From contig NZ_CAUWGY010000002.1 of assembly GCF_963558415.1 (NCBI RefSeq), forward strand, positions 5,318-69,317: a stretch of DNA of 64,000 nucleotides, written 5' to 3'. How positions within the stretch are numbered: the first letter of the stretch is position 1; each line of letters starts with the position of its first letter. The position numbers were made by a program, and so were the translations under genes. This stretch comes from an uncultured Ruthenibacterium sp. GTDB taxonomy: Bacteria > Bacillota > Clostridia > Oscillospirales > Ruminococcaceae. Of this stretch, positions 3,582-24,031 are shown piece after piece. The notes beneath the pieces were generated by a model. The model was not told where the DNA came from. It did not search any database and saw only the letters and a program-made list of their open reading frames with translations.

Positions 3582-3582
3582 G

Positions 3583-4509: not shown

Positions 4510-4521
4510 CCTTTGCCTCTT

Positions 4522-5524: not shown

Positions 5525-6151
5525 TCAAAGGGCGCTCAGCGCCTCATAAAAGCTTCCATACCCTGCAATGCTATAAATCAATCCCTCATCCGTCTGCGTA
5601 TAGACACATCCAGTATCAGGTGCAGCCAGAATACGCACTACACCGGATTCCGTAGTCAATGTGATTCGGAAAGTTTGCCCGTACCCCGCATAGGGAAGTT
5701 CTCTGCGCCAACTTGGAATACAGACAGTGTTTTGCAAAAGTTCTACAAGTTTTTGAGTCTGGTCGGTGGTCAATGTCACCGGCTTCTCCTTTTTTCCGGG
5801 GACACGACTGGACAAAGTGATACTTTCCACCTGGTCGGATTCTGCCAACGGAGTAGGCCAATAAGCCCACACACATAACCCCAACACCACTGCCAAGGCA
5901 CAGGCCAGGCTCACACTTCTGCGAAAAAACACCTTTTTTTTCTTTGGGTCTTTGTTACATTTGCGTCGAATCAGTTCCAAAATCAGAGTGACCATTAAAA
6001 CCACTGCTAAGCCTACCAAGGCAATGAGGCAAAGACGCAGTGCAATTGTGATCATACCGTCAAAAAACTCCGGTGCCTCCAACTCCTGGCGCCGCAAAAT
6101 CTTCCAGACCATGTTCCATATTTCTTCACATTTTGCAAAAAACGCACCCAT
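5525..6151 (-). CDS. Hypothetical membrane protein (2 TM helices plus extracytoplasmic C-terminal domain)
   Basis: 208 aa. Helices ITIALRLCLIALVGLAVVLMVTLILELI and SLACALAVVLGLCVWAYW are separated by a KKKK stretch. I recognise no family motif. Tightly packed between an oxidoreductase gene and NeuC. Confidence 0.5.
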   Translation of the reverse strand: MGAFFAKCEEIWNMVWKILRRQELEAPEFFDGMITIALRLCLIALVGLAVVLMVTLILELIRRKCNKDPKKKKVFFRRSVSLACALAVVLGLCVWAYWPTPLAESDQVESITLSSRVPGKKEKPVTLTTDQTQKLVELLQNTVCIPSWRRELPYAGYGQTFRITLTTESGVVRILAAPDTGCVYTQTDEGLIYSIAGYGSFYEALSAL

Positions 6152-6154
6152 GGG

Positions 6155-7321
6155 TCATTCTCCGTCGTAAAAAATTTTGGGTTTCCCACAGCGCGGGCCG
6201 GTCAAAAAGCGCTCCATTCCGCGCACCATTCGCCCACTTGTATCTCCGCCGTTGTACGGGCTGACCGTAGCTTTTGCCTGCTGTACAAAAGCGGGCGTCA
6301 AAGCTTTTTCAACAGCAGTCTGAATGGAAGCTGCATCTGCATCACAACAAATCACGTTTTGACATAAAATACGCCCCTCCTGCCTACGACCAATGTTCAC
6401 AGCAGGTATTCCCAGCGTCGGTGTCTCCACCACACCTGAAGAAGAGTTTCCAACGACAGCCGCACAATATTTCATGGCAGACAAATAACGCAATACGCCC
6501 AAACTGGTAAACGCAATATATTTATCCGGATGAATCGCACAAATCTCATCGATGCACCGATTGATTTCTGCGCCGCCTGCGTCGGCATTTGATTTTGTAA
6601 AAATGACATGTACAGAGAGTTTCTCCAATGCGGTCAAAAGTTGCTGGAACTGCCCTACCGCAGATGCACCACCCGCGGTCTCTGGATGATAGGTAACAAG
6701 AACATACGGTTTTTCCAAAGAAAAACCAATGCTCTTCTCCAATTCAGCCTTACTCATTAAGTGCATATTCCGCAGATTTTGATCGCCCAAACCACCCACA
6801 TTTTCTACCGTGGCGGGATCCTCTCCCATGCGGATGACTCGCTTTGCATACTCTTCACAAGCCGGAAAATGCAGACTGGCCATTTTGGTCAGGCAATGGC
6901 GGAAATAATCATCCGCCGCTCCATGTGTCACATCGCCTCCGCTGATGTGAATCAGCGGAATCTCCAAAAGTGCAGCCGCCTGGCCTACTGCAAAAATCTC
7001 GTACCGATCGCCCAACAAAAGAACTGCATCGGGCCGATGTGTGGAAAAGTAGTCCACAAACTGATCCAGGGTATAGGCCACCGTCTTGGCAGTGGCCAGT
7101 GCGCTTCCTGTGCCAAATTTTAAGATATCAATGCGCGCTTTTATCGGCGCCCCATCCGCTTCAACCTCGGATACTGTAGAACCGAACTCCGAGCTTAAAT
7201 GTGCGCCGGTCACTACTACCTGCGGGCACAGGATGTCGCTTTTTTCCATTGCTTTTACAACGCCTCGCAGAAGTCCCCACTCGGCGCGGGTTCCTGTCAC
7301 CACACAGACTGTTTTCTTCAT
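6155..7321 (-). CDS. neuC: UDP/GDP-N-acetylhexosamine 2-epimerase (hydrolysing), NeuC/LegG family
   Basis: Motifs VVTGTRAEWGLL, HISGGDVT and VGNSSSGVVE. Start trimmed to Met14 (MKKTV) behind RBS GAGGAGAG. Confidence 0.85.
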   Translation of the reverse strand: MKKTVCVVTGTRAEWGLLRGVVKAMEKSDILCPQVVVTGAHLSSEFGSTVSEVEADGAPIKARIDILKFGTGSALATAKTVAYTLDQFVDYFSTHRPDAVLLLGDRYEIFAVGQAAALLEIPLIHISGGDVTHGAADDYFRHCLTKMASLHFPACEEYAKRVIRMGEDPATVENVGGLGDQNLRNMHLMSKAELEKSIGFSLEKPYVLVTYHPETAGGASAVGQFQQLLTALEKLSVHVIFTKSNADAGGAEINRCIDEICAIHPDKYIAFTSLGVLRYLSAMKYCAAVVGNSSSGVVETPTLGIPAVNIGRRQEGRILCQNVICCDADAASIQTAVEKALTPAFVQQAKATVSPYNGGDTSGRMVRGMERFLTGPRCGKPKIFYDGE

Positions 7322-7331
7322 GGTGCTCTCC

Positions 7332-8327
7332 TCACAGTTCAATTTTCTCATCCTCGGCAAAATCGCGTTTGGCTGTCATGCCCAATACTTGATGCCACCG
7401 CATAGGACTGATGCCGTCACCTGGACGTTTGGTGGTGATATTCTGCTCGGTAAACACCTCGCCCTTGCGAATCGGCTTCGCAGCTACGATGCTTTTGCGG
7501 GCAATGGCTTTGTTCTTTGCCTCGCTCAGGCTAACATGTTTTTTTCCGTCTCCCAATGCCTTTTCCACATTGCGCACAGCACGGATCATAGCAGCCAGCT
7601 CATCCGGTTCCAAGCTGGCTTTATGGTCTGGACCTTCCATGTTGCGATCCAGCGTAAAATGTTTTTCAATCACACAGGCACCCAACGCAGCCGCTGCAAT
7701 ATCCGCCTCATATCCGGTGGTGTGATCCGAGTAACCCACGGGAAGACCGAACTGCTCGCGCAGATCGTCCATCGCCGTCAGATTTGCATCCTCAAAAGGT
7801 GTAGGATATTCGGTATTGCAATGCAACAGCGTAATTTGTTCTACCCCACCGTCTTCTAACACACTCAGCGCATCTTCAATTTCGCTCAGAGTGCTCATGC
7901 CCGTAGAAAGAATCACCGGCTTTTTGGTGGCCGCAATCCTTTCTAGGTACGGAAGATTTGTGATTTCACCCGACGGAATCTTCCATACGGACAGGTTCAG
8001 CGTATTCAAAAAGTCAATGCTCGGCAAATCAAACGGCGTGGAAAGGTATTCGATGCCAATTTCATCGCAATAATTTTTCAATTCTGCATGGCCGTCAAAT
8101 CCAAAGTGAATGCGCCGACACATATCAAGCTGGCTCTCACCTGCACCCGTCTGCTCCTTCTGATACTCTGCCTTCTCCGCAAACTTGCTGATAACAAGCT
8201 CCGGAATGGCTGTCTGGAACTTTACAATATCTGCACCGGCCTGCTTAGCCGCCAATGCCATTTTCTTTGCCAGTTCCAAATTTCCGTTATGGTTTACACC
8301 CGCTTCTGCGATGATGCAGATGGACAT
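7332..8327 (-). CDS. neuB: Nonulosonic acid synthase (N-acetylneuraminate synthase family, NeuB/LegI-like)
   Basis: IIAEAGVNHNGNLELAKKM N-terminal NeuB motif and a C-terminal SAF-like domain (AAKPIRKGEVFTEQNITTKRPGDGISP). Start trimmed to Met10 behind RBS AGGAGGAG. Confidence 0.9.
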   Translation of the reverse strand: MSICIIAEAGVNHNGNLELAKKMALAAKQAGADIVKFQTAIPELVISKFAEKAEYQKEQTGAGESQLDMCRRIHFGFDGHAELKNYCDEIGIEYLSTPFDLPSIDFLNTLNLSVWKIPSGEITNLPYLERIAATKKPVILSTGMSTLSEIEDALSVLEDGGVEQITLLHCNTEYPTPFEDANLTAMDDLREQFGLPVGYSDHTTGYEADIAAAALGACVIEKHFTLDRNMEGPDHKASLEPDELAAMIRAVRNVEKALGDGKKHVSLSEAKNKAIARKSIVAAKPIRKGEVFTEQNITTKRPGDGISPMRWHQVLGMTAKRDFAEDEKIEL

Positions 8328-8340
8328 AATCTTCTCCTCC

Positions 8341-10869
8341 TTACAATGGATCACGCTTTGTTTTTTTCCATAAAACTTGAGCCGTTAACAGCATCGCCGC
8401 TCCCAACAAGGAAACGACTATGCCCGCCGCCATTCCTGGGACCGCATAACGAAGTTCCACGCTATGAGTTCCTTGTTCCAATTGGACTGCACACAATCCG
8501 TCTGCCAAAGGCGTTATGGACGTGTTTTTTCCATCCACCGTACAACGAAGCGAGGAAGACCAAGGAATACTCATAAGATACAGATGCTCCCCATCGGCTT
8601 CCACCTGCGCACGAAAACGCCCGTTTTCAAGACTTGTCCATTCAATTCCATCCGACGCCGAAGAGGAGAACTGAGCCAACATTTCCGTATTGAATACACA
8701 CATACGAACATCGGTGAGCTCCATCTGATCGTACACCGGACAAACCTCTGCTGTCACTTGGTCGCCTGCTTCATAAGCGCCCAAGCACAAAACGCCCCAA
8801 GAATACCACTGTTCTGGGTTTTTATCCGTTACACTCTCTATCTGAACAGGCTTTGTTTTTTCTCCTGCCCATACAGCGTATACAATCCCATCCTTGGGTA
8901 CCTGCGCGGTAAAAGTTTGCTGTCCCTGCAAAGTTCCCAATGGTCCGGCTACATCCAACTCTTCAAAAAGCGAAACATCCGTTTGACCGCTGATCGCAGC
9001 AAACAGGGCGTTTTGAACATCAAAGAGATCGATGGGCTCCTCATAAGCAGGAATGTGAGCTTCCGCTGCGTATGAATCTGCAAAAAACCCTACAGGCAAC
9101 GCATATGGATTCTCCCAAACCAAAAGATCGGATTCACCTGCCTGTCCGACCAATTGGTAATGCGTTTGCACCCCATCCGCTTGTCCTGCAATCAAATAAC
9201 GTATTCCACACAGAGATTCTCCAAAGGCCGTACCACCGAAACGATACCCATTTACGTCGGAAAATCCCATCGCTCTCAGCCAATCGGTATTGGCGGAATC
9301 CTGTGTAGAACCGAAATGAGAAACACCATGATAACCCAAAAGCATCGGATCATTGTAACTGCGCTGAAATGTTTTTTCCATGCGCGCCCCTTTATCCAAA
9401 GCAGTCACATACGAAACCGCAGCAGATGTTTCATCGTAATAATCCAGATAATCCTGCCGGGGATACTGTTCAAATCGGCTCAGTACATCCGCTGCGTTTG
9501 CTGTCAATTCCAAAACGCATAGCGCTGCACAAACAACCAACGCACCCGCTCGCAAAATGCGCCGACGAGCGCCCAAACACAGCACACAACCAAACCCTAC
9601 GGCGCATAGGAGTGCCCCAACAAAAAACAATGTAGCCGTATACCACTCATTTCTTACAAAGAAACATACGGCCAGAAACGCAAGTCCTATCCCGCCTGCG
9701 CACAAAACGCGCCAAACGGTGAGCAACGGCGCCGCCAAAGCGCGAGCCGCCAAAAGACACATCCAAAAGGAAAATAAAAAGGAATTCCGATATGGGAACC
9801 ACACCGGTGGTTTCAGGCCATGAAACACGAGCATCAAATCCCGGCTGTACATGGAAAGGAATAAAACCACCAAAACAATGCCGGACCCCAACTTTTCCCG
9901 AAAAGGAATCCCCTTGGCCAAAAAATAAATGACTACCAAAACCACTACAAATGTTCCGCAGTACACATTTGGCAGGCCGGCCTCCACATTGCTCCAGTCA
10001 AAGTTGCCTGGCATCAGCCGATAAAAAAATTCACTCGCTTTAAAACTGGCCTCTCCCGTCAAGCCAAAATGTTCGGCCAATCCTTTATTTTGTCCAATGT
10101 CCAGCAAAGCGGGAATCAGCAAAAATGACGGCAAAGCCCCTGCGCACAAGGCTCCAAATCCAAATTGAAGACAACGGACAAATTTTTGTCCCGCATGGAT
10201 ACTGCGTGCAGCACACATCTCCCAAAAGAAGTACAGCACACAAAAAATGCATACCATATAGGCAATGTAAAAATTAGAAAAAATGGCCAAAGCCAAACTA
10301 AGTGCAAACACAAAAGGACGGCCTGTACAGCACAACTTCCAGATTCCATAACAAACCAAGGGCAATAAGAAAACCACGTCATGCCACATGATGTTCTGAG
10401 AATACACAAACACGTAAGCGCAAAAAGCGTAACACAACGCCGGAACAATCGCTCGATGCCGCAGGGACGAAAAACGACGCTCCAGAAAAAAGGCCATCGC
10501 GGTACCGCCCGCAGTTACCTTACAGAGCAACACCAGTGCGGCAAGCTCTGTATAATAACGGGGATCAAACAAAAGATACAGTACATTGAATAAACTAGAA
10601 CAGTAATAGGCCAGAATGCCCATCAGATTTCCGCCCAGGCCTTTTTCAAAACTGTATCCCCAACCAGAAAATCCTTCCAGCAAAGACCGGCGCATATGCG
10701 CAAAATAATTCAAGTACTGGCCGCCCAAATCTCCAGTCACCACTGTATTAGGGCCAAAAGGCCAAACGCCAAGAGCAATATATATAACCACCATCATAGC
10801 CGCACACAACAGTGCGGTTACAACAAGGATCTTTCTTTCGCTCAAAGCCTTTTTACCAATTGCATGCAT
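8341..10869 (-). CDS. YfhO family polytopic membrane protein (GT-C-like extracytoplasmic glycosyltransferase)
   Basis: About 842 aa. The N-terminus (WPFGPNTVVTGDLGGQYLNYFAHMRRSLLEG) is typical of YfhO, followed by over 12 TM helices and a large C-terminal soluble domain with a terminal TM. Start trimmed to Met14 behind AAGGAGAAG. Confidence 0.75.
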   Translation of the reverse strand: MHAIGKKALSERKILVVTALLCAAMMVVIYIALGVWPFGPNTVVTGDLGGQYLNYFAHMRRSLLEGFSGWGYSFEKGLGGNLMGILAYYCSSLFNVLYLLFDPRYYTELAALVLLCKVTAGGTAMAFFLERRFSSLRHRAIVPALCYAFCAYVFVYSQNIMWHDVVFLLPLVCYGIWKLCCTGRPFVFALSLALAIFSNFYIAYMVCIFCVLYFFWEMCAARSIHAGQKFVRCLQFGFGALCAGALPSFLLIPALLDIGQNKGLAEHFGLTGEASFKASEFFYRLMPGNFDWSNVEAGLPNVYCGTFVVVLVVIYFLAKGIPFREKLGSGIVLVVLFLSMYSRDLMLVFHGLKPPVWFPYRNSFLFSFWMCLLAARALAAPLLTVWRVLCAGGIGLAFLAVCFFVRNEWYTATLFFVGALLCAVGFGCVLCLGARRRILRAGALVVCAALCVLELTANAADVLSRFEQYPRQDYLDYYDETSAAVSYVTALDKGARMEKTFQRSYNDPMLLGYHGVSHFGSTQDSANTDWLRAMGFSDVNGYRFGGTAFGESLCGIRYLIAGQADGVQTHYQLVGQAGESDLLVWENPYALPVGFFADSYAAEAHIPAYEEPIDLFDVQNALFAAISGQTDVSLFEELDVAGPLGTLQGQQTFTAQVPKDGIVYAVWAGEKTKPVQIESVTDKNPEQWYSWGVLCLGAYEAGDQVTAEVCPVYDQMELTDVRMCVFNTEMLAQFSSSASDGIEWTSLENGRFRAQVEADGEHLYLMSIPWSSSLRCTVDGKNTSITPLADGLCAVQLEQGTHSVELRYAVPGMAAGIVVSLLGAAMLLTAQVLWKKTKRDPL

Positions 10870-10914
10870 TGCAAAAATCTTCTCCTTACGCCGGCCCCAT
10901 GTACACAACCGATG

Positions 10915-11958
10915 TTACTGCTGTTCCAGACGGCGGCGCATATTATCCAGCTCTTCCAACTGGCCCATATCCATCCAACTCTGTTCGCTCACCGGATATA
11001 CTCCAACGCGCCCGCCATCTTCACGCACCCGATCAATCAAATCGGTGAAAGGCGTAGGTGTATCCGGCTCAATCATGTCAATGACCTGAGGCTCCACCAC
11101 ATATACACCGGTGTTGGTCAAAAAATTCATCTCCGGCTTTTCGCGAATATTTTCAATCGCGCCATCTGCGCCTAGCTCTACCACACCATAAGGAATGGTG
11201 AAATGTTTGACCGCACATACCATTGTGATGGCATTGCCGCCCTCTTTATGGAACTTATAAATGTCTCCGAAATCGGCATCCACCAAAATGTCGCAGTTGG
11301 TCAGGAAAAATGTAGAATCAATATGCCCGCGCAAAAGGCTCAGCCCGCCGCCTGTTCCCAAGGGCTTATCCTCATCGACGTACTCCACTTCGTAGTCTTT
11401 TTCCAAATCGTTGAAGTAGGATTTGATCATATTTTTCTTATAATTGACCACCAGATAAAAATGGCTGCACCCCACATCCGTGAAGCGATGGATAATATGC
11501 TCTGCAATGGGCAATTCTCCCACGGGAATCAGCGGTTTTGGCAAAATCTTCGTATAAGGATACAGGCGGGTACCCAATCCGCCGGCCATCATCACCACTG
11601 GTACATCGGTGCGCTCCGGCGTTTCGATGTCCAATCCATCGGCAAACATTACGTCCTGGATGCGGCCAGCCCGGTCCAAAAGAGGAAGTGCGCCAATGGA
11701 TTCCTCTTTCAAAATCTGACGCGCCCGACTCCGCTGTTCCATGGGCAACGCTTTGGGGTGGTAATTCGCCATTCCACTCACTGGCGCCTCCAGCTTTCCG
11801 CTGGCCAAAATATATCGGCGCACATCGCCATCGGTCAAAGACGCTTGCAACACTCCATTTTCGGCTACAAACAAAACACGCAGACCGGTTTCATCCAATC
11901 TCCGCATAGCATCCAACACACTAATGGAACCGTCGATGAGAATGTCATCCAGTTTCAT
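10915..11958 (-). CDS. CBS-domain sugar-phosphate nucleotidyltransferase (PtmE-like)
   Basis: The N-terminal ~120 aa look like a CBS pair (ISVLDAMRRLDETGLRVLFV..., GALPLLDRAGRIQDV), followed by VVMMAGGLGTRLYPYTKILPKPLIPV (G-x-G-T-R-L NTP-transferase motif). Confidence 0.8.
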   Translation of the reverse strand: MKLDDILIDGSISVLDAMRRLDETGLRVLFVAENGVLQASLTDGDVRRYILASGKLEAPVSGMANYHPKALPMEQRSRARQILKEESIGALPLLDRAGRIQDVMFADGLDIETPERTDVPVVMMAGGLGTRLYPYTKILPKPLIPVGELPIAEHIIHRFTDVGCSHFYLVVNYKKNMIKSYFNDLEKDYEVEYVDEDKPLGTGGGLSLLRGHIDSTFFLTNCDILVDADFGDIYKFHKEGGNAITMVCAVKHFTIPYGVVELGADGAIENIREKPEMNFLTNTGVYVVEPQVIDMIEPDTPTPFTDLIDRVREDGGRVGVYPVSEQSWMDMGQLEELDNMRRRLEQQ

Positions 11959-11981
11959 AAAAAATCCCCCGTGTAATTAAC

Positions 11982-13160
11982 TCAGGCCTCAGACAAATTC
12001 AAAAGCACATCCACCACTCGCTGAGCTTGCTCTTTCGTCAGGTTCGTAGAACATGGCAGATTCACAATGCGATCCAGATAGTGACGCGCCAAATCATCCC
12101 CATAGTGCTCATTGCGCGGATAATCCGCCTGATCCTGGATCAGACCCCAGATGGGACGAGTCTGAATCTTCTCTTGTGCCAAACGGCGAATGATTTCATC
12201 CCGGCGCAGCGGATGCTCATCGTACACATACAAGCTATAAAACCACTTATTGGAACGCACGCCATCCCGGAAAGGCATGATTCCGTAATGTCCTTTTCCG
12301 TTCAACGCTTCAAAATAGAAATCATACATTTCGTTTTTATGTTGGATAAAATCTTCCAACTGCTCCATCTGCGCCAAGCCCAATGCCGCCTGCAGATTGG
12401 TCAGACGATAATTGTATCCCACCTCATCGTGTTTATAATTCAGTTCGTCTGACTTTGCCTGTGTAGACAAATGTTTTGCATGTGCAAGCCACTCCGGATG
12501 ATTGGACACAACCATTCTACCAGATCCAGTGGTAATGATTTTATTGCCATTGAAGCTGTAAACACCAACATCTCCCATCGTGCCGGCGTACTTGCCTTTA
12601 AAAGGACCATCGGTGTAATAGGTTCCCAACGCCTCGGTAGCATCCTCAATCACAATCAAATTGTGATCGTGAGCTACTTTTAACAAGCCCGGCATATTGG
12701 CCATATTACCGAACACATGTACTACTACCATGGCTTTGATGTGAGCACCTGTACGTTTGTTGATGCAACGGCCATCCCGCATCTCTGAATTGGCTTCCAG
12801 ATACTGCTCGACCAAGGTGGGACAAATGCACAAGCTGTCACCGCATCCGATAAAAATCGGCTGTGCGCCTGCGTATCGAATCGGATTTACGGCTGCAATA
12901 AAAGTCAAGGTTGGAGCAATGACTTCATCGCCAGGACCAACGCCTGCCATCATCATAGCCAGATGGAGTCCCGACGTTCCTGAGTTGCATGCACAAGCGC
13001 CGGGCATTCCTACATAATCTGCCACAACCTGTTCGAACTGCGGCACCTTACTTCCGCCAGTAGACACCCACTCGCTGACGACTGCATCGTTCACGTATTC
13101 CTTTTCGCGCCCACCAAAATTTGGAACGGACAAGGGAATAAAATTCGGTTCCATTTTCAT
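11982..13160 (-). CDS. DegT/DnrJ/EryC1/StrS family PLP-dependent sugar aminotransferase (LegC/PglE-like)
   Basis: Motifs SGTSGLHLAMMMAGVGPGDEVI and YSFNGNKIITTGSG (PLP lysine). Start trimmed to MKMEPNF at 13160, giving an ATGA overlap with the upstream gene (13157). Confidence 0.85.
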   Translation of the reverse strand: MKMEPNFIPLSVPNFGGREKEYVNDAVVSEWVSTGGSKVPQFEQVVADYVGMPGACACNSGTSGLHLAMMMAGVGPGDEVIAPTLTFIAAVNPIRYAGAQPIFIGCGDSLCICPTLVEQYLEANSEMRDGRCINKRTGAHIKAMVVVHVFGNMANMPGLLKVAHDHNLIVIEDATEALGTYYTDGPFKGKYAGTMGDVGVYSFNGNKIITTGSGRMVVSNHPEWLAHAKHLSTQAKSDELNYKHDEVGYNYRLTNLQAALGLAQMEQLEDFIQHKNEMYDFYFEALNGKGHYGIMPFRDGVRSNKWFYSLYVYDEHPLRRDEIIRRLAQEKIQTRPIWGLIQDQADYPRNEHYGDDLARHYLDRIVNLPCSTNLTKEQAQRVVDVLLNLSEA

Positions 13161-13816
13161 TTTCCTCCCTTTTGCCGGACGGCGCACTGCAAACGCAGGA
13201 CCAGGGCGGCTGCATATTTCAAAATAACGGCACTCAATGCGGGTACTATCAAAAGGCTCAACATCCATACACGAGTCGGGGCAAACCAGCTCCAAAAACT
13301 ACGCGGTTCGTTGAATGTGATGCTTTCCACGTCAAACCGAAGCCCATAATAGATGCCCGGATCAATGCGCAAGCCATAAATATCTCCATAAGGAAGCGTA
13401 AAAGTATAACTGCCATCCTCTTCCTCATGGGCCCAAACTCGGCAACGAGCATCGAAATCTTCCATGCCCGGCCGCGGTTTATAAAACAGACAAAACTCAC
13501 CTGGTTCCATATTGGTAAAGTCAAATTTTACGGTCACTGTACGCACCGTCTTGGGTGAGTCTTTCATAACCATGCGCGGGTCCACACTGATGCTCACATA
13601 ACTGTCCGGCCCGGTTTGCTCCAAATCCGTCAATTCAAAATCACTCATGGACACTTCCATGGGTTCCAGATTTCCCATCGCACGCTGCACTCGATCTTCA
13701 GCGTAACCCAAAAGCGGCAACACCAAGCTGCCGGCCAAGAATACTGCGTAGCAAAAAGCCAACAGTTTTCGGTCATTTAGGAACAGGGCCGTTATCCATT
13801 GTCTTAATTTTTTCAA
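13157..13816 (-). CDS. Hypothetical bitopic membrane protein (N- and C-terminal TM, ~150-aa external beta-rich domain)
   Basis: 219 aa. TM helices LLAFCYAVFLAGSLVLPLLGY and VWMLSLLIVPALSAVILKYAAALV. 4-nt overlaps on both sides (13813-13816, 13157-13160). Confidence 0.5.
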   Translation of the reverse strand: MKKLRQWITALFLNDRKLLAFCYAVFLAGSLVLPLLGYAEDRVQRAMGNLEPMEVSMSDFELTDLEQTGPDSYVSISVDPRMVMKDSPKTVRTVTVKFDFTNMEPGEFCLFYKPRPGMEDFDARCRVWAHEEEDGSYTFTLPYGDIYGLRIDPGIYYGLRFDVESITFNEPRSFWSWFAPTRVWMLSLLIVPALSAVILKYAAALVLRLQCAVRQKGGK

Positions 13817-15885
13817 TCGCGGTATCCTCCTCCCTCAACTGGCTCAAAACGCATATCCGCACCTGTACCGACAATTCGGTACAACCTTGCTTCGCTTTCA
13901 AGCCCATCGGTAAACAGATCCGCATACGTCTCTATAAATACCTCGTCGATGTCATCCAAATACAATGCCGTGCAGCCAGTGGCCTCAAGATACTGGCACA
14001 GCACATCGGGCGTCAGCGTCTTACCTATAAATGGCTGTCGGTCCTCAACAGGATAATCGGAGGAAAACGCCCCTTCCCGAATTTCAAAATTCGATGACAA
14101 TTGACCGCCGCCAAAACTGTAATCCAACTGCACGTCCGGATAAAACTCATAATAATGAACGAACCAATTCTTTCCGTCGTCACTCTGACTGACGTAAAAT
14201 ACTCGATCCTCCGATGTCAAAAATGTTTTGGCTTGCTCGACCATGGAAATATCTCTCTTGCGTCCGGCAAAATACCCGTCCGAATAATCCACCACCGACA
14301 ACTGCGGCTGCACAAAGCTGGTAACTCTCCAGCCGCAGCCCAACGTCAGCGCCAGCAAAAAGCCCACGCCCACACTGGCTGGTTTCGCACGCTTGAGACT
14401 GCGCAATAAGAATGCAAGCGCAGCAATAAACCAACCGATGTAATAGGGATAAATATACCGGTTGTAGCTGCTCAACGCAGCGGCCTCGGCCTCTTTGAAC
14501 ACATACACATAGGTAAAGCCCGTAAAAATGTAAAACGCAGCAAAGCCCAGCACACTCCACAGTGTAAACCAGCCTACCGCCTTACGGCCCCGCTTATCTT
14601 CGTAAACAAAAGCAACTGCCAGAATCACCAGAATGACCAAGGTAACGATCAAGCCGGAACCATTCAGGTAACGACCCACTGTCCCTTCTTGGGAGCCCAC
14701 GCTGAACATGGTGAGTTTTGTGGAATAAAAGGCCTGGAACATGTTGCCCATTACTTGCACAAACTTCTCGCTTTTGTTCGGGCTGACAAGCTCTACTGCG
14801 CCAGTGACCACCATTTGCACCATACCCATGTTCTGCTCGCCGCCGATTTCAAATCGGTTGGCGCCGGTGACCGCTCCCATATGAGCAGCCCATCCGAAAA
14901 AGGCCGCCACCGGTGCAGCTACCATGGATACGATCCAACACCATTTGGCACGAACACCCCGCAGCCGGGCAAACCGCACCTCGCCTTTTTCCAAAAACAG
15001 GAGATCAAAACAGATCAAAGCCGCCGCAATCAGGCACAAAGCAAACCCCATGTCCTTGGAAATACACTCTACCGTTACACCCATTACCGCACACAGCAAC
15101 ACCATGGGCGACTTCTCTTTTGCCAGGAAATACACCACCAATGGCGCGCCGAACAACAATCCCATGGGAATATCCGCATAGCTGCACATATAAATGGGCG
15201 ATACATTGATATCCCTCTGGTACATCGTCATCAGATAAGGCACCATACACAGCAAAAGTGCTGTTGGGACCGCCAAATTCCAGCGCCGGCGTTCCAGTGT
15301 ATAAATTCCTGCCGCAAAAATAGCAAACATGAGAATGTCATAAGCTGCGAATACTTTCCAAGGTGCAAAAGAAGCGCCCAAAAACTGGAAGGCCTCATCT
15401 AGCATCACAAGGCCCGGCACATAGCTGGTAACCCGCAAACCTTGAGGATTATAAGTGTATAACTGTCCAGTGGACTTGACTACTTTGGGCGCAATTCCCC
15501 AAAAACTAAACTCATCCCACTCCATGAACAGCGGCTGACGAATAGCAAATACGACAATGACCGCAACGCTTGCCACCACAAAAAAAACAGTAGAGGGTGT
15601 AACAAGTTCTTTCCAGTGGATTTCACGACGTTTGCGTATCAGCCACACCAACGCCAGCGCCGCTGAGGCAAACCACAAAATACCTGCCCAAAACAACAGA
15701 TTTACACTGGCTAAAACACTGTACCAAAGAATGGTTGCATACAGCACGAACAGCGGGCTGATGCCCGCCGGAACGTTCCATTTTTTCGTGCAAAAAACAC
15801 ATAGACAAATCAACGCCAAAAAGGTGACCATACACCCGGCACCCTGCAAAAAAGCCTCCAAAAAAGCAACTCTCCTTCTCTTCAA
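13813..15885 (-). CDS. Large polytopic membrane protein of unknown family (GT-C-like topology)
   Basis: 690 aa. About 13 predicted TM helices over the first ~520 aa, then a ~170-aa soluble C-terminal domain. The start codon is uncertain (TTG at 15885 or ATG at 15831). Confidence 0.55.
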   Translation of the reverse strand: MKRRRVAFLEAFLQGAGCMVTFLALICLCVFCTKKWNVPAGISPLFVLYATILWYSVLASVNLLFWAGILWFASAALALVWLIRKRREIHWKELVTPSTVFFVVASVAVIVVFAIRQPLFMEWDEFSFWGIAPKVVKSTGQLYTYNPQGLRVTSYVPGLVMLDEAFQFLGASFAPWKVFAAYDILMFAIFAAGIYTLERRRWNLAVPTALLLCMVPYLMTMYQRDINVSPIYMCSYADIPMGLLFGAPLVVYFLAKEKSPMVLLCAVMGVTVECISKDMGFALCLIAAALICFDLLFLEKGEVRFARLRGVRAKWCWIVSMVAAPVAAFFGWAAHMGAVTGANRFEIGGEQNMGMVQMVVTGAVELVSPNKSEKFVQVMGNMFQAFYSTKLTMFSVGSQEGTVGRYLNGSGLIVTLVILVILAVAFVYEDKRGRKAVGWFTLWSVLGFAAFYIFTGFTYVYVFKEAEAAALSSYNRYIYPYYIGWFIAALAFLLRSLKRAKPASVGVGFLLALTLGCGWRVTSFVQPQLSVVDYSDGYFAGRKRDISMVEQAKTFLTSEDRVFYVSQSDDGKNWFVHYYEFYPDVQLDYSFGGGQLSSNFEIREGAFSSDYPVEDRQPFIGKTLTPDVLCQYLEATGCTALYLDDIDEVFIETYADLFTDGLESEARLYRIVGTGADMRFEPVEGGGYRD

Positions 15886-15891
15886 TGCCCA

Positions 15892-17553
15892 TCAAGGCAC
15901 AATGCACACCGGGCCGATGAAATAATGCTGCGCCAAAAGCACCGCGCTGAAAACAGCAAAAAAAGCGCACACTCCAAGCCCCAGGTGAAAAGCCTTTTTC
16001 CCACCGGCACGGGTCGTTTCGAACACATGACTCAAAAGCGCTGCTAGCAATATAAACAACATCAGGAATGCAGGCAACAAATAGCGGGCCTGTACCCCCA
16101 ACACGCGCACCATAGCCACAGGCGTATAAGTGATATACTGTGCAGCCAGCACGCCGCCGGTGTACAATACCGCCAAACCAAACAGTCCCAGAGACGGACA
16201 CAACGTCAAACTACTTTTTTCGTGAACGGAAAGAGCCGATGCAAAAGCCAACACCACAGGTGACAACATAGAAATAATTCCAATGTTGAGATCCATTGCG
16301 CCAAAACTGCCCAAAAGTCCCAAAAACAAGTTGTTTTCATACAGCGTTCCCAAAAAGACCATAGCCGTACGAGGCAGATTGTGCAGCACAAAGCGCAATT
16401 GTTCACCCATATTTACGCTTTCGCCCAACATACGTACTTCTTCATAATTCACACGGAATGCCTGCCCGTACCATTCCACACCGATGGTCACCAGCACAGC
16501 ACATACAAGCACCGCTGCGGCCACCTGCCATTTTTTCCATCGTGCTTTCCACACGTGCGCGGGCAAAATCAGCGGAATGACCACCCACAAAAGATTGATC
16601 CACGGCTTCACCGCATTCATCAAAACAAAAGCCGTCAAAAATACCGCCAAATCTTTGTTTCGAATCTCGTCCACACAAAAATAACTGGCCGTCAAATAAT
16701 AGCATCCCAGCATCAATGCATCGTAGTTACAGGATGCACCAATGTACAGGCTCAACGGCAATAACATTACCGCCAAGAACACCGGTTTATACCTTCTGCA
16801 GTTTCGCAGTGCCAACCAACACAAAAATGCATAAATCGCCAAATTGGCCAAACGACCTGCATAAAAACAGCCCAGCGCCCCAAAACCGATCATTCGTGCC
16901 AGCAGCATTGCCAACGCCTGGGGCAAATACGGCAACACTTGCTTGATCTGCGACTCTTTGACCACCGGAGCTCCGCCTTCGGTCTTCATTTGCTCATATC
17001 GCGCAAAATGATCCGCCAGGCTCACGGTTTGCCCATTTTGCTGCTTGATCGCATAGTTCTCACTGGACCCGCCACCGTTCACGTTACCCGAAGCGTCGTA
17101 CTCCAGCCAATAAGTGGTGTTTCCGTTGGTCCACGCACCAGGGAAGGCCGCCAAAAGCGCATCCACATCGGAACTGAACGTTCTCTCGCCGTCGAAATTC
17201 AAACGGCCCAAACTTACAGCATAAGCCCTCAGAAAATGCTCGCTCTCATCCGGTGCCTGCATAGGCGGATTGGCAAAGCAAAAACACAATCCGCACAAAA
17301 ACACCGCCAACGCAGCCCGTGCGTCAAAATTTTTAACAAATCGGATTACCAGCCACGCCGCCAGCACCACCGCCAGCGCCCCGGCGCACACGACCAAAGT
17401 CATGGGGAGGGGCGCCACCGCGTTGAACCCATAAAAAACTCGCCAATAATACACCACGCCAATGCCGCAAAGGACAGCAGCCAGCGCTGCCAAACACCAT
17501 CCCAATGCTCCATTCAGGCGCAGTTTATTCGGTTTCGCACCGTTTTGTCTCAT
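15892..17553 (-). CDS. DUF2142-like polytopic membrane protein (GT-C-like)
   Basis: 553 aa. The first external loop carries PPMQAPDESEHFLRAYAV, which I recall as the DUF2142 hallmark, followed by about 11 further TM helices. RBS GGAG. Confidence 0.55.
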   Translation of the reverse strand: MRQNGAKPNKLRLNGALGWCLAALAAVLCGIGVVYYWRVFYGFNAVAPLPMTLVVCAGALAVVLAAWLVIRFVKNFDARAALAVFLCGLCFCFANPPMQAPDESEHFLRAYAVSLGRLNFDGERTFSSDVDALLAAFPGAWTNGNTTYWLEYDASGNVNGGGSSENYAIKQQNGQTVSLADHFARYEQMKTEGGAPVVKESQIKQVLPYLPQALAMLLARMIGFGALGCFYAGRLANLAIYAFLCWLALRNCRRYKPVFLAVMLLPLSLYIGASCNYDALMLGCYYLTASYFCVDEIRNKDLAVFLTAFVLMNAVKPWINLLWVVIPLILPAHVWKARWKKWQVAAAVLVCAVLVTIGVEWYGQAFRVNYEEVRMLGESVNMGEQLRFVLHNLPRTAMVFLGTLYENNLFLGLLGSFGAMDLNIGIISMLSPVVLAFASALSVHEKSSLTLCPSLGLFGLAVLYTGGVLAAQYITYTPVAMVRVLGVQARYLLPAFLMLFILLAALLSHVFETTRAGGKKAFHLGLGVCAFFAVFSAVLLAQHYFIGPVCIVP

Positions 17554-17587
17554 CTAAATCTCCAAATAGTATTTATTTTGTTAATAA

Positions 17588-18571
17588 TTACAAACTGTAA
17601 ACACCGGTGCGGAAGGCATCCATATGCTCGCGAATCCAAGCGATTGTTTCGGCCAGACCCTCTTCAAAGGTGTAAGCCGGTTTCCAACCGGTCATCTGAC
17701 GCAGCTTGGTGGAATCGCCCAAAAGGCGGTTGACTTCGCTCTTCTCCGGACGCAGACGCTCAGATTCGCACACAATCTTTGCCTCGGGATTGATTTGGCG
17801 AATCAACTCATTGGCCAGATCTCCAATGGAAATTTCCTTACCTGTTGCAATGTTGATCTCCTGGCCAACAGCAGCCTCACAGTCGGCAATCGCCATAAAC
17901 CCTGCGGCCGTATCCTTCACATAGTTAAAGTCACGAGTGGGAGTCAGACTTCCCAACTTCAGCTCTTTCGCTCCGGACAAAAGCTGGGTAATGATGGTGG
18001 GAATGACCGCACGACCAGACTGACGAGGGCCATAGGTATTGAAGGGACGCACAATGGTGACCGGTAGTTCAAAAGAGCGGTAGAAGCTCTCGGCCAACCG
18101 GTCCGCACCAATCTTGGTGGCAGAGTACGGACTCTGTCCCTGGAAGGGATGATGCTCATCAATGGGCACGTACTGAGCGGTTCCATACACCTCACTGGTA
18201 GAAGTGACCAGCAAACGGCTTGTCCCCACGTCCCGAGCAGCATTCAGTACGTTCAATGTACCTTTGATGTTGGTATCTACATAGCTGTCCGGAGAATGAT
18301 AGCTGAAGGGAATGGCAATCAATGCCGCCAGATGATAGACGATCTCCTGCCCTTTCATTGCCGTGCGAACCCCGTTGGGATCGCGAATATCGCCCATAAA
18401 CACTTCGATCTCATTTTTGATTTCCGGTGCCAGCGTGTCCAGCCAACCCCAAGTGCCGAAGGAATTATAATAACAAAAGGCTTTTACCTTTTCGCCTTTA
18501 CGAACCAGTTCTTCCGTCAGATGGCTGCCGATGAATCCGTCGGCGCCCGTCACCATTACGGTATGTGCCAT
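17588..18571 (-). CDS. NAD-dependent nucleotide-sugar epimerase/4,6-dehydratase (SDR family, LegB/PglF-core-like)
   Basis: VMVTGADGFIGSHL (GxxGxxG) and SPYSATK (YxxxK). Start trimmed to MAHTV behind AAGGAGAGG. First gene of the minus-strand operon. Confidence 0.85.
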   Translation of the reverse strand: MAHTVMVTGADGFIGSHLTEELVRKGEKVKAFCYYNSFGTWGWLDTLAPEIKNEIEVFMGDIRDPNGVRTAMKGQEIVYHLAALIAIPFSYHSPDSYVDTNIKGTLNVLNAARDVGTSRLLVTSTSEVYGTAQYVPIDEHHPFQGQSPYSATKIGADRLAESFYRSFELPVTIVRPFNTYGPRQSGRAVIPTIITQLLSGAKELKLGSLTPTRDFNYVKDTAAGFMAIADCEAAVGQEINIATGKEISIGDLANELIRQINPEAKIVCESERLRPEKSEVNRLLGDSTKLRQMTGWKPAYTFEEGLAETIAWIREHMDAFRTGVYSL

Positions 18572-18619
18572 ACTACCTCTCCTTATCGTGCATGGTTCAA
18601 CATGCAATACTCGGTTATT

Positions 18620-18648: not shown

Positions 18649-18687
18649 TAAAAGTTCACCTGTCCACCCCAACTCAACGTCCTTTGC

Positions 18688-18716
18688 TTTACAAACAAGC
18701 TCTTTACATCTATAAT
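18688..18716 (+). promoter_or_regulatory. Candidate sigma-A promoter of the MBOAT arm
   Basis: TTTACA-17 nt-TATAAT, 46 nt upstream of ATG 18762. A small 5'-UTR hairpin follows (TTGGCC-ttgtgt-GGCCAA). Confidence 0.5.
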
Positions 18717-18761
18717 AATAAATTGGCCTTGTGTGGCCAAACCAGACAAAGGAGAGCTTTC

Positions 18762-20327
18762 ATGACCTTGACAAGCGTGGGCTACGCGCTGTTTTTCGCG
18801 TTGGTAGCCATTCTCTATTTTGCCCTGCCCAAACGGTTTCAAAACAGCGTTCTGCTGGTGGCCAGTGTAGTATTTTATTGCTTTAATTTGCCTGGCGCTC
18901 AGCAGGCGGACGGAACTGTACGTCCGCTTTGGATGCGCCTGTTGCCACTGGCAGTGCTTTTCTTCAACACAGTGTTTACCTTTTTCATGGCCCGCTCCAT
19001 CGCGGCGGCCGAAAACTCCCGCCGCAAACGGCTTTTGGCCCTAGGTGTGTGCGTAAGCGTGGCGGTACTTTGTTTCTTCAAATACTGCAATTTCTTTCTG
19101 CCTACGATTTTCGGATGGACGGCGGTTTCTTTCCCCTTGCCTCTTGGCATCAGCTTTTATACCTTTGCCATTATCAGCTATCTGGTGGACGTATATTATA
19201 AGGCCGCGGAGCCCGAAACCAACTTTCTCAACTGGGCCTTGTTCGTGTCCTTTTTTGCCACCATTACCTCCGGCCCCATCTGCCGGGCGCAAAAAGTGCT
19301 TCCTCAGTTGCGTGCCCCTCGCCGTTTTGACGCACAGCGCACCTGCGATGCTTTTCGGCTGATTCTGGCCGGACTGTTCAAACAAATCGCTGTGGCCAAT
19401 GTGCTGGGGCTGTTTGTGAATCAGGTGTTTGAAAACAGCGCGGATTACTCCGGTTTGATCTTGCCTTTGGCCGCCGGACTGTATGTGATTCAGCTCTACT
19501 TCGAATTCTCCGGTTATTCGGACATTGCGCGAGGCTGTGCTCTGCTGCTGGGAATCGATATTCCTGTAAACTTCAAAACACCTTTGTTCTCTACCAACTT
19601 TTCCACCCTGTGGAAACGCTGGCATATCAGCCTTTCCAGTTGGCTTCAAGACTACCTGTTCACGCCCATCGTATGGAGCCGCTGGGGCGATCACCTGCCT
19701 CGCGTTACCCAGAAAAACGGTAAAAAAGAGGCCAAGCCTTTTGTAGCCACTGTGGGAATCGTGTTCTTTATCAGTGGATTCTGGCACGGAAATACATGGC
19801 CCTTTGTCATTTGGGGTCTTTTACAGGGAATGTACCGTGTGGGTGAGGATTTGCTTCACAGTTGGTACCGAAAGCCTCCCAAGCATCCCTCGCTTCCTGT
19901 TCGCGCAGGTAAAACCGGAGTGGTATTTATTTTGTGGGCATTCAGTCATGTGTTCTTCCGCATTGGACTTGTCTCCGGCGGCACTGTGGGCGACTGTCTT
20001 GCCTATTTTGCCAACAGCTTCACGAATCTGTCCCTTTCGCATTTTGTGGAGAGCTTTGTCACGGCCGTGGAAAACGGTTTTTACACGCGCCCAATCATGG
20101 TGGCGGGCTGGTGCGCATACATGGTTATGGTTTTGGCGATTGGAATCTATGCAGACTGGCGGCAGTGCTTTAAAATGAAGGACGCGCACTGGTCTACTGG
20201 CCTTGCCAAACTTCCCACGGTGGCGCGCTGGCTGTGCTACTACGTGCTCATTGGATGTATTTTGGTGGGCTTCATTATGCAGAGCGGCGGATTTGGAACG
20301 GTCAGTTTTGCCTATGCAAACTTTTAA
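18762..20327 (+). CDS. MBOAT family O-acyltransferase (AlgI/DltB/PatA-like)
   Basis: About 11 TM helices and the conserved His region FISGFWHGNTWPFVIWG. Start trimmed to MTLTSVGYALFF behind GGAGAG. Confidence 0.85.
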   Translation: MTLTSVGYALFFALVAILYFALPKRFQNSVLLVASVVFYCFNLPGAQQADGTVRPLWMRLLPLAVLFFNTVFTFFMARSIAAAENSRRKRLLALGVCVSVAVLCFFKYCNFFLPTIFGWTAVSFPLPLGISFYTFAIISYLVDVYYKAAEPETNFLNWALFVSFFATITSGPICRAQKVLPQLRAPRRFDAQRTCDAFRLILAGLFKQIAVANVLGLFVNQVFENSADYSGLILPLAAGLYVIQLYFEFSGYSDIARGCALLLGIDIPVNFKTPLFSTNFSTLWKRWHISLSSWLQDYLFTPIVWSRWGDHLPRVTQKNGKKEAKPFVATVGIVFFISGFWHGNTWPFVIWGLLQGMYRVGEDLLHSWYRKPPKHPSLPVRAGKTGVVFILWAFSHVFFRIGLVSGGTVGDCLAYFANSFTNLSLSHFVESFVTAVENGFYTRPIMVAGWCAYMVMVLAIGIYADWRQCFKMKDAHWSTGLAKLPTVARWLCYYVLIGCILVGFIMQSGGFGTVSFAYANF

Positions 20328-20339
20328 GGAGGAGCGCCT

Positions 20340-21386
20340 GTGAAAAAAATCATTTTCAAACTGGCGCTGGCACTGGCGCCTATTGTCCTATACCTTGCAG
20401 TGTTTGTAGCTTTTGAACCCAACAATTATTTTGGCTTGCGGGAAACTGGCAGTGACAACAGCCCTATCTCTCGCATTCGTGCCTTTGAGAAGGAACCTCA
20501 CGAAAACATTCTTCTTGGAGATTCCCGCATGGCCCACTTTGACATGGATCTGGTGGACCAGGTCTCCGGCGTTCAATGGTCAAATTTGGCTTATGGCGGA
20601 GCCAGTCTTGAGGAGAGCATCGACGAATTTTATTACGTCTATGAACAGCATCCGGAGATTGAGCGTGTACTGATGAGCATTTCCTTCTACACTCTAAACG
20701 CCAACTACCGCACAGCAAACCGAATGGCAACAGTGGAAACACAACTGGCCAACCCGGTTGCGTATATCTCCAATCTTGAATACAACATCAACACTCTGAC
20801 TGTCATCGGAGATAAGATACGCGGTTTGCCCGACGCAGAAGAAACCGCGGAACATACCCCGGACGACTATTTGCCCAACGGACAGCGCAAGGATCTGGTG
20901 GCCTATGCGGCTATTCTGTATCAAAACTGCGCCAAAGCTGGCACTCTTCCCATGGCCGAGGGTTATTCCAGTACTCAGAGCATGGTGGATGCCATGGATT
21001 CGGGCGAATTGGACGGCGAAGCGCTGGCTGCGGCAATGGAAAGCTGTACCGAAGCGGATTCCAAATACGCCATTAACGAACCAGCACTTGAGCGACTTTT
21101 GGAACTGGTGGAATTTTGCAAAGACAACGGCGTAGAATTAACGCTATTGGTGCCGCCCATGGACGACAGTCTTTATCGCTATGTGTGTGAGCCCTTGGGC
21201 ATCGATGACGCTATGCGCGGCGCTTTGGACACCATTCGTTCCAGTGGTGCCCGCGTACTAGACTACGAATGGACCGAAATGCCCCACTGGGACGACACGG
21301 CCTATTTTGACGGATTCCATTTGGACACCCGTCACGGACTTCCCCAATTTACCCAAGAGTTGTTCACCCGGGTGATGGAAGATTGA
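20340..21386 (+). CDS. Membrane-anchored SGNH/DltD-like partner of the MBOAT
   Basis: GTG start behind GGAGGAG. One N-terminal TM helix, then ILLGDSRMAHF (GDS-type block I). Position immediately after the MBOAT gene mirrors DltB/DltD and AlgI/AlgJ pairs. Confidence 0.55.
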   Translation: MKKIIFKLALALAPIVLYLAVFVAFEPNNYFGLRETGSDNSPISRIRAFEKEPHENILLGDSRMAHFDMDLVDQVSGVQWSNLAYGGASLEESIDEFYYVYEQHPEIERVLMSISFYTLNANYRTANRMATVETQLANPVAYISNLEYNINTLTVIGDKIRGLPDAEETAEHTPDDYLPNGQRKDLVAYAAILYQNCAKAGTLPMAEGYSSTQSMVDAMDSGELDGEALAAAMESCTEADSKYAINEPALERLLELVEFCKDNGVELTLLVPPMDDSLYRYVCEPLGIDDAMRGALDTIRSSGARVLDYEWTEMPHWDDTAYFDGFHLDTRHGLPQFTQELFTRVMED

Positions 21387-21407
21387 TCTTTAAAAAGGAG
21401 TTTTTCC

Positions 21408-22736: not shown

Positions 22737-22826
22737 ATGCGGACTTGTTTTTCCGACCATAAGAAAGGTATAATAAAGCAGGAGTTGCCGATTGGGGCAG
22801 CTCACGGGAAAGCGAGGTTTTCAACA

Positions 22827-23946: not shown

Positions 23947-23979
23947 AAAAGCCATGGCATTCATCGCCATGGCTTTTTT
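23947..23979 (+). terminator. Rho-independent terminator
   Basis: AAAAGCCATGGC-attcatc-GCCATGGCTTTTTT immediately after the stop at 23942. Confidence 0.8.
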
Positions 23980-24031
23980 ATTGACAAATTTCGTGCCCCT
24001 TGTTATTGTAATGACGAAGGGGGATGAAAAA

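Follow-up and report, generated by a model that had tools for sequence, protein, structure and literature searches.

How does a sugar that is activated in the cytoplasm as a cytidine monophosphate (CMP) derivative come to share an operon with three giant membrane proteins resembling extracytoplasmic glycosyltransferases? The question is raised by a locus in a 64-kb stretch of DNA (64,000 nucleotides of contig NZ_CAUWGY010000002.1, here called the window) from an uncultured Ruthenibacterium sp. A preliminary description of this DNA had placed a YfhO protein of 842 amino acids (aa), an orphan protein of 690 aa and a DUF2142-like protein of 553 aa among the cytoplasmic sugar genes of the operon, and their coordinates and sizes were given correctly. 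With moderate confidence, the locus is interpreted here as a copy of a family-wide Oscillospiraceae locus, in which the genes for legionaminic acid (Leg) and three large membrane proteins of the glycosyltransferase C (GT-C) type together serve a Leg-containing cell-surface glycopolymer.

Open reading frame (ORF) listing and profile searches outline a compact operon on the minus strand, running from position 18607 to about 1450 (Table 1). The gene order is legB, DUF2142, orphan, 219-aa partner, legC, PtmE-like, YfhO, neuB, neuC, 208-aa protein, GFO, GFO, cytidylyltransferase, GNAT, LRR-like (leucine-rich repeat). The junctions are tight. The TTG start of the 219-aa gene overlaps the TGA stop of the orphan gene (TTGA), the ATG of legC overlaps the stop of the 219-aa gene (ATGA), and ribosome-binding sites abut or overlap the stops of YfhO and neuB, with gaps of 13 nucleotides. 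The observation of an interleaved, tightly packed operon is confirmed. The ORF of YfhO (8341-10908) encodes 855 aa if read from a TTG codon and 842 aa from the ATG at 10869.

Relatives of the orphan were sought in a set of genomes with a single representative for each GTDB species. This yielded 235 relatives, and 79 loci were kept. The window proteins were mapped onto these loci by tblastn and hidden Markov models; greedy clustering of ORFs had been polluted by antisense ORFs. The closest locus is that of Owariibacterium komagatae, with an identity of 93% at the protein level and about 80% at the nucleotide level, which indicates that the window comes from a related species. The recurrent core consists of two divergent parts, WbuX-GT-B-SGNH-MBOAT on one side and legB-DUF2142-(orphan-partner)x1-3-legC-ptmE-[YfhO]-neuB-neuC-GFO-GFO-legF on the other, and it was observed in Ruthenibacterium, Pygmaiobacter, Anaerofilum, Subdoligranulum, Faecalibacterium, Allofournierella and their relatives. 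Chance can be dismissed as the cause of this arrangement, since dozens of genomes from several genera share it.

The leg genes are present in 57 of the 79 loci. All but one of these 57 contain DUF2142, and DUF2142 is confined to leg-containing loci (56 of 56). The orphan gene directly follows the DUF2142 gene in 48 of the 56 loci, and the divergent GT-B gene is present in 27 of the 38 loci with enough upstream sequence. Even next to the most distant relatives of the orphan (26-27% identity) the order is neuB-DUF2142-orphan or legB-DUF2142-orphan-204-aa. YfhO behaves differently. It occurs in 26 of the 79 loci, half of which have no leg genes, and is an optional part of the locus rather than of its core. 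Modules of YfhO and the orphan also exist apart from leg genes (see below).

A side observation concerns the rates of divergence. Compared with their counterparts in O. komagatae, YfhO is only 71% and the 208-aa protein only 68% identical, against 85-97% for the flanking enzymes. It seems that the outward-facing proteins are either exchanged or evolve more quickly.

The models for LegB, LegC, the hydrolysing 2-epimerase and the nonulosonate synthase (TIGR04180, TIGR04181, TIGR03568, TIGR03569) all score above their curated cutoffs, in support of the view that the membrane proteins are embedded in a CMP-nonulosonate operon. Judged by these matches, the pathway is that of legionaminic acid (GDP-GlcNAc route) and not of a generic sialic acid. 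The protein with CBS and NTP_transferase domains is presumably a PtmE, by analogy with the Leg pathway of Campylobacter. The cytidylyltransferase matches LegF-type families weakly (Table 1). A hexapeptide N-acetyltransferase of the LegH/PglD type was not found in the cluster. One possibility is that this step is supplied by the GNAT protein at 2056-2814, which may act in place of a LegH-type enzyme. When 148 representative unexplained ORFs from the 79 loci were compared with Pfam, a test that detects families with two or more members and not singletons, GNAT was the sole recurrent extra family (nine ORFs).

The orphan protein has no match in Pfam or NCBIfam even at E<=10. The first search retrieved about 120 clusters of homologues, all unnamed and all from Oscillospiraceae/Ruminococcaceae; in a profile search of the full library, 4453 representatives of 50%-identity clusters passed E<=1e-3, of which 1189 also passed E<=1e-30. 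A hydropathy scan and the secondary structure of the AlphaFold2 model agree on about 13-15 membrane helices followed by a C-terminal alpha/beta domain. In an alignment of 41 members with 26-63% identity, P118, D124, F126, S127, W129, D238, R476 and Y477 are invariant and E125 is nearly so. The residues around D124 form a PLFxEWDEFSFWG-type motif (WDE) in the first large loop. This loop is placed outside the cell by the positive-inside rule, as the charged runs RKRRE (84-88) and RRR (199-201) stand before the fourth and after the fifth helix, respectively.

The AlphaFold2 model of the orphan is confident (pLDDT 91.8, pTM 0.93). All high-probability Foldseek matches in the PDB are GT-C enzymes with polyprenyl-phosphate donors, namely ArnT, AftD, DPY19, Pmt4 and STT3. 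For ArnT (5f15/5ezm) the probability is 1.0, the E-value 3-4e-3 and the TM-score to the target 0.41-0.47. WaaL is a weaker match, and matches outside GT-C are to unrelated transporters with probabilities of at most 0.35 and TM-scores of about 0.1. Profile comparison by hhalign aligned the C-terminal half of the orphan with DUF2142 (probability 82%, E 1e-5), the RY motifs coinciding; by this criterion the orphan is a distant homologue of DUF2142. The same comparison of the orphan and of DUF2142 with YfhO showed no relationship (probability about 1%), and a search of PDB sequences with the orphan profile, YfhO, DUF2142 and the GT-B protein gave no meaningful match. Taken together, the model and its matches support, although they do not prove, the existence of a large new family with the GT-C fold and without a Pfam model.

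The DUF2142 protein matches PF09913 at 129.5 bits (cutoff 30.1) over model positions 1-394 of 395. Residues P101-D102-E103, D278, D421 and R490-Y491 are invariant in 55 family members, and the P-D-E triplet falls in the first large outer loop. The protein is a candidate transferase of GT-C type, similar to WpsJ or WpsI of Lactococcus. YfhO matches PF09586 at 512.2 bits (cutoff 28.5) over positions 3-835 of 835 and has an invariant D60 in the first outside loop. It also aligns with the models of Streptococcus PgfM1 and PgfM2 (E 3e-75 and 3e-67), with scores of 253.7 and 227.8 bits against equivalog cutoffs of 1400 and 1500. In all three membrane proteins the acidic first large loop is predicted to lie outside, again by the positive-inside rule. 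Thus the GT-C-like character ascribed to them earlier is clear for the two Pfam members, and for the orphan it is supported by a confident model, by the GT-C enzymes among its top matches and by the invariant acidic loop motif.

The gene downstream of the orphan, overlooked in the preliminary description, encodes the 219-aa partner. It has transmembrane segments at 18-36 and 188-206 with an outside domain of about 150 aa between them, and residues D79, R150 and D152 are invariant. There is no Pfam match even at E<=10. By topology the protein resembles WpsH/Wzz. A gene of the partner family follows an orphan-family gene in 91 cases out of 105.

Also overlooked were the genes of the divergent plus-strand operon (18684-23942), which starts 77 bp from legB and encodes four proteins. 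The first two are an MBOAT protein and a 348-aa SGNH-like protein. The latter has no Pfam match at E<=10 beyond a weak one to DUF1574; 31 homologues share the invariant residues G60-D61-S62, G86-G87 and D324-G325-x-H327, corresponding to the SGNH-type pattern GDS...GG...DGxH. The pair probably O-acylates a substrate outside the cell, as far as the catalytic motifs can tell. The last gene encodes a WbuX-family amidotransferase. Beyond it, a pair of small membrane proteins (DUF4234 and DUF2752, 23954-24777) ends the operon; this pair is shared with the closest relative only and probably lies outside the system.

The third protein, of 442 aa, is a candidate link between the CMP-sugar and the lipid carrier. 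By profile score it is a member of TIGR04396 and a relative, not a member, of the BFO_1060 family. Its AlphaFold2 model (pLDDT 88.3, pTM 0.88) has 192 PDB matches at E<=1e-3, and the best 50 of the 192 all have the GT-B fold. The GT-B matches include WaaG, LpxB, MGD1 and TarL, which are lipid-acceptor enzymes, as well as SenB and UDP-GlcNAc 2-epimerases. The homologues have an invariant R229-R230-H231-P232 (RRHP) motif, and the most hydrophobic and the most amphipathic segments of the protein are in a conserved C-terminal helical extension. In Tannerella forsythia, deletion of Tanf_01245 or TFUB4_00887, orthologues of BFO_1060, removes the terminal pseudaminic acid (Pse) or Leg derivative from the O-glycan (PMC5420450). 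The 442-aa protein is similar to these transferases in being a soluble two-domain protein without transmembrane segments, in standing beside nonulosonate genes and in having an HP motif. On the other hand, the window organism is of Gram-positive type, and the Tannerella glycan is attached to proteins by general O-glycosylation, with no linked GT-C genes. On these sequence comparisons the 442-aa protein is a candidate CMP-legionaminate transferase. The preliminary description had reported no candidate sialyltransferase. This is correct for the minus strand but not for the locus, and the overlooked GT-B gene softens the paradox of a CMP-sugar in a lipid-dependent system, the bridge from CMP-sugar to lipid carrier being still a candidate one.

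Table 1. Genes of the leg locus and of the divergent operon, in order of position in the window
Feature	Position	Strand	Basis
GNAT acetyltransferase (252 aa; 2056-2814) and LRR-like 201-aa protein, operon end	1450..2814	-	Pfam
Cytidylyltransferase, LegF-like CMP-sugar synthetase	2811..3581	-	CTP_transf_3 (PF02348) E 3e-5; PseF E 6e-17, below cutoff
Two GFO/IDH/MocA oxidoreductases, kept in cluster	3583..5499	-	Pfam; synteny
208-aa membrane protein with two transmembrane segments, not core	5525..6151	-	Transmembrane scan; homologue in few loci
neuC/legG, hydrolysing 2-epimerase	6155..7360	-	TIGR03568 409 bits, cutoff 236
neuB/legI, nonulosonate synthase	7332..8354	-	TIGR03569 493 bits, cutoff 400
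YfhO-family GT-C, 842 aa from ATG	8341..10869	-	PF09586 E 4e-153
CBS + NTP_transferase, PtmE-like	10915..11958	-	Pfam NTP_transferase E 3.7e-30 and CBS
legC, aminotransferase (start is the ATG overlapping the stop of the 219-aa gene)	11982..13163	-	TIGR04181 442 bits, cutoff 420
219-aa bitopic partner	13157..13816	-	Transmembrane scan, synteny
Orphan polytopic protein, 690 aa	13813..15885	-	No Pfam/NCBIfam match; GT-C-like model
DUF2142 polytopic membrane protein, 553 aa	15892..17553	-	PF09913 E 1.8e-37
legB, NAD-dependent 4,6-dehydratase, first operon gene	17588..18607	-	TIGR04180 514.7 bits, cutoff 475; Pfam GDP_Man_Dehyd/Epimerase
MBOAT (DltB/AlgI-like) membrane O-acyltransferase, first gene of divergent operon	18684..20327	+	PF03062 E 9e-16; DltB model below cutoff; invariant W313-H314
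348-aa membrane-anchored SGNH-like protein, MBOAT partner	20340..21386	+	SGNH-type motifs; weak DUF1574 match
442-aa GT-B-fold protein, about 2.8 kb from legB	21408..22736	+	TIGR04396 249 bits, cutoff 125
WbuX-family N-acetyl sugar amidotransferase (acetamidino formation)	22737..23942	+	TIGR03573 345 bits, cutoff 203

The closest known analogue, by published descriptions and not by sequence, is the Wps pathway of Lactococcus. In this PSP or 'dual-chain' pathway of L. lactis/cremoris (WpsA/B, WpsC-F, WpsG, WpsI, WpsH, WpsJ), WpsA/B make undecaprenyl-phosphate-linked GlcNAc (C55-P-GlcNAc), which is lengthened in the cytoplasm before WpsG flips it. The GT-C protein WpsI, which has a DUF2142 domain, then polymerises the C55-P-linked units together with WpsH, a protein with two transmembrane helices and a large outer loop, and another GT-C protein, WpsJ, attaches the product to rhamnan (PMC9574508, PMC12599335, PMC10821137). 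Measured against these descriptions, the window has a similar anatomy: its 553-aa protein shares the DUF2142 domain with WpsI, the orphan is a distant relative of the same domain, and the 219-aa partner answers to the description of WpsH. In both systems there are several GT-C proteins per locus, those of Lactococcus (WpsI, WpsJ) acting outside the membrane on polyprenyl-monophosphate-linked glycans. If DUF2142, the orphan and the partner repeat the Wps anatomy, it would follow that several GT-C proteins are needed. There are also differences. The sugar of the window is a CMP-activated nonulosonate, whereas the Wps sugars are UDP- or dTDP-activated; the window locus has a single cytoplasmic glycosyltransferase (GT) candidate, with the GT-B fold, and its orphan family has no Pfam model; and no rhamnan genes are present in the 64-kb window. 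Thus the suggestion of an undescribed surface-glycosylation route is valid in a narrower sense only. The Wps pathway is a close conceptual precedent and the logic of extracytoplasmic assembly is already known; the GT-C family with its partner is new, and so would be the proposed feeding by a CMP-nonulosonate.

Other systems resemble the locus in part. In multi-component transmembrane glycosylation a GT-A enzyme loads C55-P, a flippase of the GtrA or Wzx type moves the product and one GT-C enzyme transfers the sugar. Such systems decorate wall polymers outside the cell, and YfhO proteins act in this way on teichoic acids (PMC8035078). Like CsbB/GtcA/YfhO, GtlA/GtlB and GacI-L, the window has a YfhO-family GT-C protein with an outside acidic motif. 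However, the GT-A synthase and the GtrA/Wzx flippase were not found in the window locus and do not recur in its relatives; loci of the window type have three to five GT-C proteins rather than one per donor, and the pathway here ends in a CMP-sugar.

The decorations predicted from the window, an acetamidino group (WbuX) and O-acylation (MBOAT/SGNH), are those known from Legionella. The O-antigen of Legionella pneumophila serogroup 1 is poly-5-acetamidino-7-acetamido-8-O-acetyl-legionaminic acid, a part of lipopolysaccharide, and is O-acetylated by Lag-1, an enzyme of the Acyl_transf_3 family. No GT-C enzymes are known to take part in its synthesis.

The reading that we prefer, and to which we give about equal weight for and against, is that a Leg glycopolymer is finished outside the membrane by GT-C enzymes, following a Wps-like logic and fed by a CMP-nonulosonate. 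The families, folds, motifs and linkage described above are its observed ground, and on them the chemistry, roles and all substrates are proposed. CMP-Leg would be made in the cytoplasm by LegB, LegC, the PtmE-like protein, NeuC, NeuB, the two GFO oxidoreductases, GNAT and the LegF-like protein, and WbuX probably gives the 5-acetamidino form of Leg. At the inner face of the membrane the GT-B protein would move Leg from CMP-Leg to a polyprenyl-phosphate-linked primer; this role is suggested by its homology to the Tannerella Pse/Leg transferases and by its being the only recurrent cytoplasmic GT candidate. The lipid-linked unit would then be flipped by a flippase presumably encoded elsewhere, no gene of the window being assigned to this step. 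On the outside, the orphan and the 219-aa partner may act like WpsI and WpsH, that is, as a polymerase with a chain-length partner, and the DUF2142 protein, like WpsJ, may attach the glycan to an acceptor in the wall. In loci that have YfhO, this protein would serve an additional acceptor or linkage. Finally, the conserved catalytic motifs of the MBOAT and SGNH-like pair suggest that it O-acylates the glycan outside the cell.

A number of observations weigh against this proposal. As the preliminary description had noted in part, the 64-kb window contains no Wzx/Wzy, GtrA/GtcA, GT-A/GT2, WpsA/B-like enzyme or initiating phosphotransferase. Nor do the families that recur (at least two members) among the 79 loci include GT2, Wzx, GtrA, LCP or an initiating phosphotransferase. 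By contrast, the Wps cluster includes both a C55-P-GlcNAc synthase and the Wzx-type WpsG. The Wps roles of polymerase and ligase are themselves based on bioinformatics and gene inactivation (PMC9574508, PMC12599335, PMC10821137), and the window proteins were matched to WpsH, WpsI and WpsJ through published topology and domain descriptions only. For the orphan, the Foldseek E-values are modest (3e-3), with TM-scores of 0.34-0.47. The best structural matches of the 442-aa protein are UDP-GlcNAc 2-epimerases, which share the GT-B fold, and its score with the BFO_1060 family model (NF046086) is 91.3 bits, under the cutoff of 200 (E 6e-26, positions 3-316 of 365). In the literature searched, the glycan chemistry of the carrier organisms was not found: no paper there links legionaminic acid with GT-C enzymes, or deals with nonulosonates or envelope glycan chemistry in these Oscillospiraceae genera. 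Lastly, 22 of the 79 loci are modules of orphan, partner and YfhO without leg genes within 10 kb.

The latter modules form islands with the order orphan paralogue-partner-orphan-partner-YfhO, as in Gemmiger formicilis (L054:7208-14985; similarly L033, L042, L046, L050, L058 and others). They are flanked by sugar-catabolism genes (ABC sugar transport, ROK kinase, GH38), and no sugar-activation genes are present within 10 kb. Two large ORFs of unknown function beside YfhO in loci of the Gemmiger type were considered and rejected as spurious antisense ORFs in high-GC DNA. At least three metagenome-assembled genomes contain both an island and a leg-type locus (L040+L062, L057+L064, L032+L071).

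The islands raise the possibility that the GT-C proteins handle some other lipid-linked sugar made elsewhere and merely share a cell-envelope island with the leg genes. This is very unlikely. The arrangement legB-DUF2142-orphan-partner-legC, in which start and stop codons overlap, is retained while the identity of the orphan drops from 93% to about 26%; DUF2142 does not occur in loci without leg genes; and the genomes just mentioned combine the island with a leg-type locus.

Two observations come from individual loci. A 412-aa protein with 10-12 transmembrane segments, which resembles a flippase and is absent from the window, has its gene flanked by those of WbuX and the GT-B protein in Pygmaiobacter massiliensis. 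It occurs in only three loci (L009:1618-2856, minus strand; L011:1875-3122; the edge of L078) and is confined to Pygmaiobacter but for a partial copy in one Allofournierella locus; its N-terminus looks Wzx/MOP-like and it has no Pfam match. In the most distant locus examined (L080), a weak PMT_2-type GT-C gene and a GT2 gene (2664-4220, 16971-17747) are located near the neuB-DUF2142-orphan trio. The GT2 gene is accompanied by rhamnose-type nucleotide-sugar genes, and this is the only sampled locus with a GT2 close by.

The remainder of the window, checked for GTs, flippases and initiating transferases, contains housekeeping and sugar-catabolism genes only. Genes for GH2, GH36 and ABC sugar uptake, taken with a gene of the choloylglycine (bile salt) hydrolase family (36186-37265, PF02275, E 3e-94), indicate a gut-dwelling organism. 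At 54676-62435 the minus strand encodes several secreted proteins in a row whose N-termini are of the TasA/camelysin type (AWFTDSxTNTGN); in two of them the C-terminal part looks like a beta-helix. The same stretch encodes a 299-aa protein ending in DPSQQDPNGQGT repeats and a Ser/Thr-rich protein with an LPQTG sortase motif. These are probably the fibre proteins of the preliminary description. The idea that the TasA-like fibre proteins serve as acceptors was considered; these proteins share no synteny with the leg locus.

It could nevertheless be suggested that Pgf/PMT-like GT-C proteins attach Leg glycans to Ser/Thr-rich secreted or wall-anchored proteins, for example the TasA-like fibre or the LPQTG protein. 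The similarity of YfhO to PgfM1 and PgfM2, the presence of Pmt4 and DPY19 among the structural matches of the orphan and the existence of such proteins in the window all point in this direction, as does the function of the related Tannerella transferase in protein O-glycosylation (PMC5420450). However, with 254 and 228 bits YfhO stays far under the PgfM equivalog cutoffs, no PgfS-like GT2 is present in the window, some 37 kb separate the fibre genes from the locus, these genes fall outside the conserved synteny, and YfhO is optional. Protein O-glycosylation is therefore rather improbable.

A different role of the GT-B protein would be to transfer Leg from CMP-Leg directly to C55-P, giving C55-P-Leg. 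Once this had been flipped, each GT-C protein (DUF2142, orphan, YfhO) would add one Leg to an acceptor of its own, for instance a teichoic acid, a wall polysaccharide or a protein, and the locus would amount to several classical three-component systems with one shared donor. The GT-B protein is the sole cytoplasmic GT candidate that recurs, and the locus encodes no second sugar pathway; ArnT, AftD, DPY19 and Pmt4, which head the structural matches of the orphan, take single sugars from polyprenyl-monophosphate donors; YfhO proteins work in this way on teichoic acids (PMC8035078); and the conserved hydrophobic or amphipathic C-terminal extension of the GT-B protein would suit membrane association. 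However, no C55-P-nonulosonate is known to have been demonstrated, no GtrA-type flippase is linked, and the bitopic partner and the one to three tandem copies of orphan and partner fit a polymerase with a co-polymerase better. We regard such single-sugar decoration as unlikely.

The same donor could also feed a polymer. In this version the TIGR04396 GT-B protein would make undecaprenyl-phosphate-legionaminate, and the GT-C set would build (poly)legionaminic acid with acetamidino and O-acyl decorations on the wall, entirely outside the membrane. DUF2142 would be the primer or ligase, the orphan with its partner the elongating polymerase, and YfhO would add a further linkage. The assembly of mycobacterial arabinan from decaprenyl-phosphate-arabinose would thereby have a nonulosonate counterpart. 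It is a doubtful version; if true, it would revive the old and since abandoned idea of a lipid-phosphate-linked sialic acid.

Under the preferred reading of a Wps-like pathway fed by CMP-Leg, the locus brings CMP-activated nonulosonic acids into contact with extracytoplasmic GT-C enzymes, a combination that is not known from elsewhere, and the GT-B protein provides a concrete candidate for the enzyme bridging the CMP-sugar to the lipid carrier. Some of the most abundant and health-associated bacteria of the gut are Oscillospiraceae such as Faecalibacterium, Gemmiger, Subdoligranulum and Ruthenibacterium. Where host immune recognition, phage receptors and strain typing are concerned, a conserved locus for a surface sugar that resembles sialic acid would rank among the foremost candidates.

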